DNA of 64,000 bases from Escherichia coli. Lineage in GTDB: Bacteria; Pseudomonadota; Gammaproteobacteria; Enterobacterales; Enterobacteriaceae. Shown here piece by piece: positions 16,808-61,973 of the stretch. The stretch's first letter is position 1, and each line of letters begins with the position of its first letter. The DNA is taken from the NCBI RefSeq assembly GCF_044324875.1, contig NZ_CP172185.1, one strand, 5' to 3'. The position numbers and the translations under genes are program-made. The notes below the pieces were generated by a model that saw nothing but the letters and a program-made list of their open reading frames with translations, was not told the DNA's origin and made no database searches.

Positions 16808-16906
16808 TGCGTATTCCGCTCTATTCGATCACGGATTGGCATCGAAGTCCGATCAGCGATTCGCATCCATTCGATCAACCGGGAACTTAACTTTTTCTAC
16901 CGCTTT

Positions 16907-17662
16907 TTAACGCGTTTTTTCGCTGCTTTCCACTACCGGGGGATTTTTCCTCAGTGACTCTCCCTGAAGGACCACTCGGTGTGAGTTATGTACCAGTCTG
17001 TCCAGGATGGCATCTGCTGTTGTTGGGTTCTCCATCAGACCATGCCATTTATCTACCGGGAACTGGCTTACCACTATCGTGCTGCTTTGTCCGTAACGAT
17101 CCTCTATGAGCTCCAGAAGGTCATTACACTGGGCGTTACTTAACTGTTCCAGCCCCAGATCGTCCAGGATTAGAACCTGTATTTTTTGCAACTGTTTCAG
17201 ATATTTCAGCCAGCTGCCATCAACACGTCCCTGAGCCAGTTGTTCCAGTAATCGCCCGGTTCTACAGTACCGGACGCTGTGTTTCTGTCGACATGCCTGT
17301 TCGCCCAGCGCATTGGCTATCCAGCTCTTGCCACATCCTGTCGGACCGGTTATCAGCAGGTTTTTCCTGTGGGTTATGTAGTGGCCGTTCAGCAGTTCTC
17401 TCATCTGTTCAGCCCGCAGACCTCTTGAGGCCGGATAGCGCAGCCCTTCCGGTGTTGCCTGGTATTTCAGGCCGGCATTTTTTCTCAACCGTGCCACACG
17501 GCTGTTTTCCCTGCTCAGAAGCTCGTCATCAACCAGCAGCGTCAGCCTTTCCTCGAACGACAGTTCGTCGTAGGTCTGAGGCGTTTCCCGCTGCCGTATC
17601 AGGCTCCCGGCCATCGCCGGGAGTTTCAGTTGGGTCAGTTTGTTTAACAGGTTATCACTCAT
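16907..17662 (-). CDS. istB: IstB helper ATPase (AAA+, DnaC-like) of the IS21-family element
   Basis: Track ORF is extended; likely start ATG at 17662 (MSDNLLNKL...); Walker A GPTGCGKSW and Walker B LILDDLG. Confidence 0.85.
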   Translation of the reverse strand: MSDNLLNKLTQLKLPAMAGSLIRQRETPQTYDELSFEERLTLLVDDELLSRENSRVARLRKNAGLKYQATPEGLRYPASRGLRAEQMRELLNGHYITHRKNLLITGPTGCGKSWIANALGEQACRQKHSVRYCRTGRLLEQLAQGRVDGSWLKYLKQLQKIQVLILDDLGLEQLSNAQCNDLLELIEDRYGQSSTIVVSQFPVDKWHGLMENPTTADAILDRLVHNSHRVVLQGESLRKNPPVVESSEKTR

Positions 17663-17678
17663 ACTGTTGTTCCTTCTG

Positions 17679-19214
17679 TCAGTGGTAGTAGCCCGGACCA
17701 CGCAGGTTTTCATGCTCTGAAGCATATGCCGGATGTTGTTCGCCCTGGCGGGATAATGGAAGCTCCAGGTTCTCCCGATGGTGACGCAGCAGATTGTCGA
17801 TAAAGCGTCTGTCAGGGGCGTTATAGTGCAGGGCAACGTAACAGGCCTTTTCCAGCCGTTCCGGGCCGTATTTTTTCTGAAGTGCCAGCAGCCCCAGAAC
17901 TGCACGATAAGCCAGTTCCGGATGGGGTTTTGCCTTCAGCATGGATTCAACCACCCGGCCTGTGGACGGGCCCGTACGTTTTCCCTGCTCGATCAGGCGT
18001 TCCGGTGTCCATGTCCCGTGCTGCCGGTGGCGCTCTGGCATGTGAAGCGGATTGGTTGTGTGTTTATATTCATGTGTGCTGCGCGGATGTTGCGCCACAC
18101 ACTGCCCCTTGTGCCAGAGCTGTACCACCGACTGCCCCGCCTTCAGTGACAGACGCTGACCGACCAGTTCGTGTGGAACGGAGTACCAGTGACGGGCATA
18201 TTCAACGTGGTAGTCAGGGCCAACCTTCACAGCTTTGTATTCCGTGTATTCATAAGGTGCCAGAGGCAGCGGAGAGAGTGCTGGCGCATCCAGTATGCGG
18301 AAGCGTTCTGCACGGGTTTGATTGCCGTACCCCTTCATTGGCCGGTTATTCATGTCTGTCAGTAACTCCCTAAGGCGCGCATTCAGCGCCCTGAGCGTGT
18401 GGAAGGTTTCATTACGGATGCGGGCAAGAAGCCATCGTTCAACGATGAGGACGCCGTTTTCTGCTTTTGGTTTATCTTTAGGTTTGCGTGGTCGGGCCGG
18501 GATGATAACCGTGCCATAGTGCTCAGCCAGTGCCTGATAACTGTCGTTGATGACAGGCTCATATCGATCGGCCTTTTTCACTGCGCTTCTGAGGTTATCG
18601 GGGATGAGCAGCTTCGGTACGCCGCCCAGGAAGGTCAGGCAACGGCTGTGGGCATTTAACCATGACATCATGTCCTGACCTTCGCACGCTTCAACGTAGG
18701 TATAGTTGGACGCCCCCATTACGGCCACGAAGATTGCCACGCGGCGTATCTCACCGGTGTCCGGATTAATAACAGGAACCGTAGGACCACAGAAGTCGAT
18801 AAAAAGCTTTTCGCCGGCACGATGCTCCTGGCGCATGGAGAGACGTCGCGTTTTTTTCCACTCCCGGTAGCAACGGCAGAAGTGCGAGTATCCCATCGCT
18901 TTGTTACCCGCCTGTGCCTTGTATTCCATCCACAACAGTTGCCGCGTCACACCTGGTTTTCTCATTTCCGTATCGAAGTACAACATGTCAGGCATTACAA
19001 GCTCTGATGCAAAGGTGTCTTTGGGCGGAAAAATGAGTTTCTCCAGCGTGTCATGGGATATATCAGCAGGTAATGGCCATGACAGAGAAGAGGCTTTGAA
19101 GCGGGCAAGAACCTCAAAAACGGTTGAGGCGCTGATGTGTAACGTCAGTCCGATACAACGGTTAGTCAGCTTCTTGTCGAACTTGAGCTGAAGGATCTTA
19201 AAACAGGTTTCCAT
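17679..19214 (-). CDS. istA: IstA transposase (DDE integrase core with N-terminal HTH) of the IS21-family element
   Basis: Track ORF 17679-19325; likely start ATG at 19214 (METCFKILQL...); stop is 16 nt upstream of istB. Confidence 0.85.
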   Translation of the reverse strand: METCFKILQLKFDKKLTNRCIGLTLHISASTVFEVLARFKASSLSWPLPADISHDTLEKLIFPPKDTFASELVMPDMLYFDTEMRKPGVTRQLLWMEYKAQAGNKAMGYSHFCRCYREWKKTRRLSMRQEHRAGEKLFIDFCGPTVPVINPDTGEIRRVAIFVAVMGASNYTYVEACEGQDMMSWLNAHSRCLTFLGGVPKLLIPDNLRSAVKKADRYEPVINDSYQALAEHYGTVIIPARPRKPKDKPKAENGVLIVERWLLARIRNETFHTLRALNARLRELLTDMNNRPMKGYGNQTRAERFRILDAPALSPLPLAPYEYTEYKAVKVGPDYHVEYARHWYSVPHELVGQRLSLKAGQSVVQLWHKGQCVAQHPRSTHEYKHTTNPLHMPERHRQHGTWTPERLIEQGKRTGPSTGRVVESMLKAKPHPELAYRAVLGLLALQKKYGPERLEKACYVALHYNAPDRRFIDNLLRHHRENLELPLSRQGEQHPAYASEHENLRGPGYYH

Positions 19215-19318
19215 AGTGCTCCTGGATTTTCTCTTTCTGGACATTGACGTCTCCACTGGTTTAAACACGGCAATGGAGACTGTGGTGAAAAGAGTTAATT
19301 CCCGGAGTGACTGGCAGG

Positions 19319-19440
19319 ATGCCAATCAATGATCGGAAGCATGCCAAATCGTGATCGATTGTGATGCCAAACTGTGATCGGAGATGGATGCCAAATCATG
19401 ATCGATTCGAATGCCAAACTGCGATCGATTCAGATGCCAT
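19319..19440. repeat. Six tandem direct repeats (period 22-24 bp, core ATGCCAAA..GATCG) at the istA-proximal IS end
   Basis: Copies start at 19319, 19341, 19364, 19388, 19411 and 19434; inverted copies of the motif occur at the other end (16825-16880). Typical of the multi-repeat termini of IS21-family elements. Confidence 0.7.
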
Positions 19441-19446
19441 TTTGCA

Positions 19447-57201: not shown

Positions 57202-59328
<2,127 letters not shown>

Positions 59329-59341
59329 GCCTAAGGGTTAA

Positions 59342-60583
<1,242 letters not shown>

Positions 60584-60607
60584 TTACACGTTAATTAGTT
60601 TCGAATT

Positions 60608-60634
60608 AAAAAGGGCGCTTCGGCGCCCTTTTTG
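60608..60634 (+). terminator. Rho-independent terminator of the str operon (after tufA)
   Basis: aagggcgc-ttcg-gcgccctt hairpin followed by ttt. Confidence 0.8.
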
Positions 60635-60765
60635 CTGCCCGTAATTTGAGCTCGAAATATTTAGTCGCAATTTCACTCGCTGAACTATGGCGCAAATAAA
60701 ACTGTGCTATTGTAATCATAACCATTCTCATTTACACTTTGCGCAGAATTTGAACGGGAGCAATC

Positions 60766-60960
60766 ATGTACGTTTGTTTGTGTAATGGTGTAAGTGACAA
60801 AAAAATTCGCCAGGCAGTCCGTCAGTTTCATCCGCAATCTTTCCAACAATTGCGTAAGTTTATTCCTGTGGGAAATCAATGCGGTAAGTGCATTCGCGCC
60901 GCGCGCGAAGTGATGCAGGACGAGTTGATGCAGATGCCAGAATTTAAAGAGATTGCCTGA
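60766..60960 (+). CDS. bfd: Bacterioferritin-associated ferredoxin
   Basis: 64-aa ORF with the four-Cys 2Fe-2S pattern (C4, C6, C39, C42). Confidence 0.88.
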   Translation: MYVCLCNGVSDKKIRQAVRQFHPQSFQQLRKFIPVGNQCGKCIRAAREVMQDELMQMPEFKEIA

Positions 60961-61032
60961 AGCCCACGCTTATTTTTTGACATCCCGCTAGCCCCATCTA
61001 CGCTCTAATAGTGGAAGCGGAGGGACTATAAA

Positions 61033-61509
61033 ATGAAAGGTGATGTTAAAATCATAAATTATCTCAATAAACTATTGGGAAATGAGCTTGTCGCAATCAA
61101 TCAGTATTTTCTCCATGCCCGGATGTTTAAAAACTGGGGCCTGATGCGTCTTAATGACGTCGAATACCATGAATCTATCGATGAGATGAAACACGCTGAT
61201 AAATATATCGAGCGTATTTTGTTTTTAGAAGGAATCCCCAACTTACAGGATTTAGGCAAACTGGGGATTGGTGAAGATGTCGAGGAGATGCTGCAATCCG
61301 ACCTGCGATTAGAACTGGAAGGCGCGAAGGATCTCCGTGAGGCTATCGCGTATGCCGACAGCGTTCATGACTATGTTAGCCGTGATATGATGATCGAGAT
61401 CCTTGCCGATGAAGAAGGTCATATTGACTGGCTCGAAACTGAGTTGGATCTCATCGGTAAAATCGGTCTACAAAATTACCTGCAATCACAAATAAAAGTT
61501 AAAGATTAA
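61033..61509 (+). CDS. bfr: Bacterioferritin
   Basis: 158-aa ORF; ferritin-like four-helix bundle. Confidence 0.93.
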
Positions 61510-61973
61510 CGGCCTGCCAGCAAACTATCCCAGCCTACAACGAAACCCGCAGCCGCCAGAAATGGACCAAACGGCAGCGGGTTTTTTAATGACTCTTTTC
61601 CTCTCATAAGCAAACCAATAACTACGGCTCCGCAAGCGAATGAGGCAGCAAGGAAAACCAGTCGTGGCAAGAAGGTCCATGTATGCCAGGCACCAAGGGC
61701 GGCGAGAAACTTCACATCACCATAGCCTAATCCTTCTTTATGGCGCAGTATGCGATACCCCCAGTAAATGACAGCGAATGTGCCGTAACCAATAATCGCC
61801 CCCCATAACGCATCGGCTAAACCGTCAGGATTACAAACTTGATAGAACAAAAGACCTGACCAGAGTAACGGGCAGGTAAACCTGTCAGGTAACAAGCCAT
61901 GCTTTGCATCCCAGAAAAAAAGTAGGGTTGATAAACAAGCGTACAAAATCAGAAAGGGAAGGGCAGCGTCCAT
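61506..61973 (-). CDS. Short prepilin (leader) peptidase-like membrane protein, peptidase domain only (HopD/GspO-like)
   Basis: 155-aa ORF with the two aspartate motifs typical of A24 prepilin peptidases (LLPDRF and [18 protein letters not shown]); no N-terminal methyltransferase region; convergent 4-nt overlap with bfr. Confidence 0.7.

Follow-up and report, generated by a model that had tools for sequence, protein, structure and literature searches.

Fur is an established repressor of bfd in E. coli, Salmonella and Pseudomonas. It is likewise established, mainly through work in Pseudomonas aeruginosa, that Bfd promotes iron release from bacterioferritin. In E. coli K-12, Beauchene et al. 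(2015) observed a Fur ChIP-seq peak at bfd and found that a bfd promoter-lacZ fusion was repressed by Fur. Expression of bfd rose 5.9-fold in a Salmonella fur mutant, and a Fur box has been predicted at bfd in an ExPEC strain. Chen et al. (2007; PMC2189734) described the geometry in which overlapping Fur dimers bind with a 6-bp offset on opposite strands, and predicted a three-site cluster of 31 bp and 20.2 bits at -40 of K-12 bfd; in their work bfd carries neither an F nor a G mark, that is, neither a footprint nor a gel shift. The closest described locus is that of strain 042, one of nine strains in which Gao et al. (2023; PMC10164565) combined Fur ChIP-exo with RNA-seq of fur knockouts. We found no in vitro footprint or gel shift in the literature for the bfd allele examined here, and no mapping of the bfd transcription start.

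We analyzed a 64,000-nucleotide stretch of E. coli DNA, hereafter the window, in which the gene order is fusA-tufA-bfd-bfr (Table 1). Strain 042 is colinear with the window over its full length, at 98.7-99.1% identity over 64 kb. Around bfd there was 1 mismatch in 6,441 nt, and the 481 bases around the site described below were 100% identical to strain 042 and to several other genomes; the bound site of strain 042 has the same sequence as that of the window. Overall identity and an additional IS element nonetheless set the window apart as a different strain. Strain 042 does not carry about 2.6 kb found at 16808-19445 of the window, between its yhfY and yhfZ. This segment is an IS21-family insertion sequence (istA and istB, ISSso4-like; at least 99% match) with many copies in other E. 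coli. We interpret positions 60711-60735 as the Fur operator of the bfd promoter, serving iron-dependent repression, and place the probability of this reading at about 93%.

Table 1. Features around bfd, in window coordinates.
Feature	Position	Strand	Score or source
fusA	57214-59328		Annotation carried over from strain 042
tufA	59399-60583		Annotation carried over from strain 042
Intrinsic terminator of tufA, AAAAAGGGCGC-UUCG-GCGCCCUUUUU, hairpin followed by a U-run	60608-60633	+	RNA folding
Putative -35 hexamer TTGTAA	60710-60715	+	Read from sequence; 4/6 to TTGACA
Fur site 1, TGTAATCATAACCATTCTC	60711-60729 (-55 to -37 from the bfd ATG)	+	Matrix, 19.26 bits
Fur site 2, GTAAATGAGAATGGTTATG	60717-60735	-	Matrix, 17.11 bits; offset 6 bp from site 1
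ChIP-exo peak P119 of strain 042, AACCATTCTCATT	60720-60732		Gao et al. 2023, Dataset 2, mapped by coordinate
Putative -10 hexamer TACACT, after a 17-bp spacer from the -35	60733-60738	+	Read from sequence; 4/6 to TATAAT
Shine-Dalgarno GGGAG, 5 nt before the bfd ATG	60756-60760	+	Read from sequence; conserved in the alignment
bfd, bacterioferritin-associated ferredoxin, 64 aa; the regulated gene (ATG at 60766)	60766-60960	+	ORF; 042 annotation WP_000289090.1
bfr, bacterioferritin, 158 aa; downstream partner of bfd	61033-61509	+	ORF; bfr in 042 annotation
Short prepilin peptidase gene	61506-61973	- (opposite bfd and bfr)	Annotation carried over from strain 042
rpsJ	from 62352		Annotation carried over from strain 042

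Because the Salmonella table gives only weak predicted sites, we built our own matrix from K-12 promoters. Twenty intergenic regions upstream of Fur-regulated K-12 genes were used, with bfd left out: fepA-fes, fepD-entS, fepB-entC, fhuA, fiu, fhuE, tonB, sufA, cirA, exbB, feoA, ryhB, sodA, fecA, fhuF, fur, yncE, mntH, fecI and nrdH. Refinement from the best site of each region gave a 19-column matrix of 16.9 bits, in which the textbook consensus was recovered. Because that consensus served as the seed and training used the top hit of each promoter, the training scores are inflated; leave-one-out scores compensate for this. Among the 127,964 positions scored in the window, Fur sites 1 and 2 ranked first and second, and they kept these ranks when fecI was left out of the matrix. 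Site 1 scored higher than 15 of the 20 leave-one-out scores of the K-12 training promoters (median 15.6). The two sites overlap on opposite strands with the 6-bp offset known from other Fur operators and together span 25 bp. Weaker matrix hits lay 6 bp before and 12 bp after site 1, at 5.0 bits (60705) and 7.65 bits (60723). The other top hits in the window reached at most 15.4 bits, the level of simulated maxima, and were more than 8 kb from the peaks of strain 042.

A sequence-only reading of this DNA had flagged 60709-60731 as a possible Fur box upstream of bfd and had proposed matrix scoring as a check. The matrix rank supports that proposal, as do the conservation of a Fur site in 18 of 18 Enterobacterales, peak P119 and the derepression of bfd in fur knockouts, each taken up below. 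The string that it quoted, gctattgtaatcataaccattctcat, is present but spans 60706-60731, and the flagged interval omits its first three bases. The placement at about 35-55 bp upstream of bfd agrees with the position of that interval, -57 to -35 relative to the ATG. The operator itself ends slightly beyond that interval, at 60735.

The strength of the match depended on how it was scored. Against the classical consensus GATAATGATAATCATTATC, site 1 had 14 of 19 matching positions and site 2 had 13 of 19; five 19-mers in the window matched the consensus at 14 or more positions. With up to 3 mismatches allowed, the 19-bp consensus had no match anywhere in the window. The 15-bp ChIP-exo motif TGAnAATnATTcTCA, searched with up to 2 mismatches, gave 2 matches including the bfd site, where 1.3 were expected; shuffling did equally well in 38 of 100 cases. 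Simulation gave a different picture for the matrix. Of 300 simulated 64-kb windows, only 6 had a site as good as site 1 anywhere, and only 1 had a pair of sites spaced by 6 bp that both reached 17 bits. When the 182-bp intergenic region was simulated, 0.035% of the copies reached the score of site 1. Consensus counting is thus not above chance and is unable to settle the question, whereas the weighted matrix is above chance. The earlier description of the match as weak by eye was fair as far as consensus counts go, but by matrix the site is strong.

To place the operator in a wider comparison, we searched species-representative genomes with a degenerate pattern for the Bfd N-terminus, which retrieved 120 loci. 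In each of the 18 other Enterobacterales, the highest-scoring Fur hit within 200 bases upstream of bfd fell between -61 and -28 and scored 14.2-19.4 bits, and a 19-mer identical to site 1 was present in two Enterobacter species. A hit of at least 12 bits was found upstream of bfd at 62 of the 100 more distant loci (Pseudomonas, Marinomonas, Nitrospira, Rhodospirillales and others), compared with 0.4% of 3,960 control 200-bp chunks. Across 20 enteric upstream regions, column identity was 88% in the operator, 33% further upstream and 66% from the operator to the ribosome-binding site. The operator was the sole conserved block upstream of bfd in these sequences.

One Citrobacter sp. MAG stood apart in this comparison. 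On its contig DXKH01000010.1 the region upstream of bfd was nearly identical to that of K-12, including the part that is otherwise unalignable, which suggests either a mis-binned E. coli contig or a very recent transfer.

The intergenic region also has to accommodate a promoter. The hairpin downstream of tufA folded at -20.9 kcal/mol (z = -3.16), and 1 of 200 shuffles was equally good. Since transcription of tufA ends at this terminator, a promoter for bfd itself has to lie in the approximately 130 bases that remain. A promoter and terminator pattern scan of 60500-61100 called nothing, neither the bfd hexamers nor the tufA terminator; the latter was probably overlooked by the scan because A/U pairs absorb the T-run. 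The columns of the putative -35 were near-invariant across the 20 enteric sequences, and the putative -10 was conserved in most of them. From this layout we infer the exact hexamers and, with them, a mechanism of occlusion: the operator would cover the putative -35 and the entire 17-bp spacer and run into the putative -10.

The same layout allows the conserved block to be read as the core bfd promoter, with its likeness to a Fur box a by-product of an AT-rich promoter and with Fur control exerted elsewhere or indirectly. The -35-like TTG and -10-like TACACT do lie within or adjoining the block, and the crude consensus tests were not significant. Promoter spacers normally vary, yet here the spacer columns were the most conserved and fit the Fur matrix. 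The ChIP-exo peak falls inside the block at 13-bp resolution, and no other matrix site above 9 bits was found between tufA and bfr. A Fur-matrix hit also recurs upstream of bfd in distant bacteria whose promoter sequences are unrelated. We consider a promoter lacking Fur control of its own very improbable.

Binding and expression data from strain 042 bear on the operator directly. Peak P119 was reported at NC_017626.1 3816258-3816270, under condition R (iron-replete only), with bfd as the assigned gene (PMC10164565); we checked the conversion of its position to window coordinates against the sequence. In the 042 fur knockout, bfd had a log2 fold change of 5.52, an increase of approximately 46-fold, and the value was positive in the fur knockouts of seven further strains (PMC10164565). 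A bfd peak was listed for W3110 and seven other strains, and the MG1655 ChIP-exo sheet did not list one (PMC10164565). Within the span colinear with the window, the 042 sheet contained only two peaks, both at bfd/bfr. These published data, obtained on identical sequence, demonstrate that Fur occupies the site in vivo only when iron is replete and that loss of fur strongly derepresses bfd. Binding of Fur to precisely this sequence is therefore already known.

The direction of regulation was considered separately. Fur raises the expression of ftnA and dps (Beauchene et al. 2015), and bfd adjoins the storage gene bfr, so the site could in principle serve activation or binding by apo-Fur and not be a classical iron-dependent repressor site. 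The restriction of P119 to the iron-replete condition speaks against this, as does the change in bfd expression, which was up, not down, in the fur knockouts of eight strains and of Salmonella; the K-12 promoter fusion was also repressed by Fur. We likewise regard activation as very improbable. A similarly small chance attaches to the sequence being mainly the target of another regulator, such as a nucleoid protein or other metal sensor, with Fur binding incidental: the matrices used were for Fur only and overlap with another regulator's site is possible, but the approximately 46-fold derepression makes Fur the dominant control and the conserved columns track the Fur matrix. Each of the three alternatives is contradicted by the conserved spacer, by a peak confined to iron-replete conditions, and by how far and in which direction the knockout shifted bfd expression.

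The preferred reading, an operator for iron-dependent repression of bfd, suggests the following sequence of events. When iron is sufficient, Fe2+-loaded Fur dimers would occupy both overlapping 19-bp sites. Bound there, from the putative -35 through the spacer into the putative -10, they would exclude RNA polymerase and keep bfd off. When iron falls, Fur would lose its metal and depart, allowing bfd to be transcribed, and the Bfd ferredoxin would then help to free the iron stored in bacterioferritin.

The second peak of strain 042, P118, was assigned to bfr and labelled intergenic, and it maps to 60861-60873 in the window, inside the bfd coding sequence. No matrix hit above 5 bits was found under P118; the best hit within bfd was 8.6 bits at 60790-60808. 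Strain W likewise had two such peaks, separated by 149 bp (PMC10164565). P118 could represent a shoulder of P119, the result of Fur spreading, or a motif-poor site. The spacer between bfd and bfr contains a perfect TTGACA (60977-60982); 16 bases separate it from a TACGCT that has a C before it (60998-61004). Judged by eye, 60977-61004 resembles a promoter with a -10 element of the stationary-phase sigma factor type and may be a separate putative bfr promoter. One possibility is that P118 marks a motif-poor Fur site that would control such a promoter.

Downstream, the product of the prepilin peptidase gene has 155 aa, and the gene shares 4 bases with the end of bfr. In K-12 the corresponding gene, gspO, codes for approximately 225 aa and closes a complete gsp cluster, which is missing from the window. 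The 155-aa gene may be a remnant.

Comparison with K-12 revealed a similar operator in a different setting. The K-12 bfd operator shares with the window the regulated gene, the distance from the ATG, the overlapping opposite-strand pair 6 bp apart, and the putative arrangement of -35, 17-bp spacer and -10. The K-12 sites, at -52 and -46, scored lower, at 15.2 and 14.85 bits versus 19.3 and 17.1 bits in the window. This two-site layout matches the cluster that Chen et al. (2007; PMC2189734) predicted at -40. Upstream of bfd, K-12 has chiA inserted where the window has tufA. The tufA gene and its terminator were 99.55% identical to K-12 up to 60635, beyond which chiA is inserted in K-12; homology resumed at 60709, the start of the operator, with only 77% identity through bfr. 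At the protein level, 56 of 64 Bfd residues and 139 of 158 Bfr residues were identical between the two alleles.

The window-type allele, with tufA directly adjacent to bfd, was present in 2,254 of 5,426 complete E. coli genomes (approximately 42%). The K-12-type allele was flanked by chiA and gsp secretion genes, and there were almost no intermediate genomes. This pattern suggests that the bfd-bfr segment was replaced by recombination or horizontal transfer.

A close counterpart of site 1 exists elsewhere in the K-12 genome. Chen et al. (2007; PMC2189734) mark fecI as footprinted (F). This different gene, for the ferric citrate sigma factor, shows no homology to the bfd region beyond the box. 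The site that the matrix picked at K-12 fecI, TGTAATGATAACCATTCTC, is identical to site 1 at 18 of 19 positions. Judging from the F mark, this 19-mer is probably the footprinted stretch.

These results carry little weight as a discovery. They do show that a reader working without tools can recognize a true operator whose consensus match is weak. What is gained is a set of base-level coordinates for the two-site Fur operator of a non-K-12 bfd allele. As a tentative and rather unlikely extension, allelic replacement by horizontal transfer may have kept the layout of the operator while changing its strength, in which case E. coli lineages would differ in the threshold at which they mobilize stored iron.
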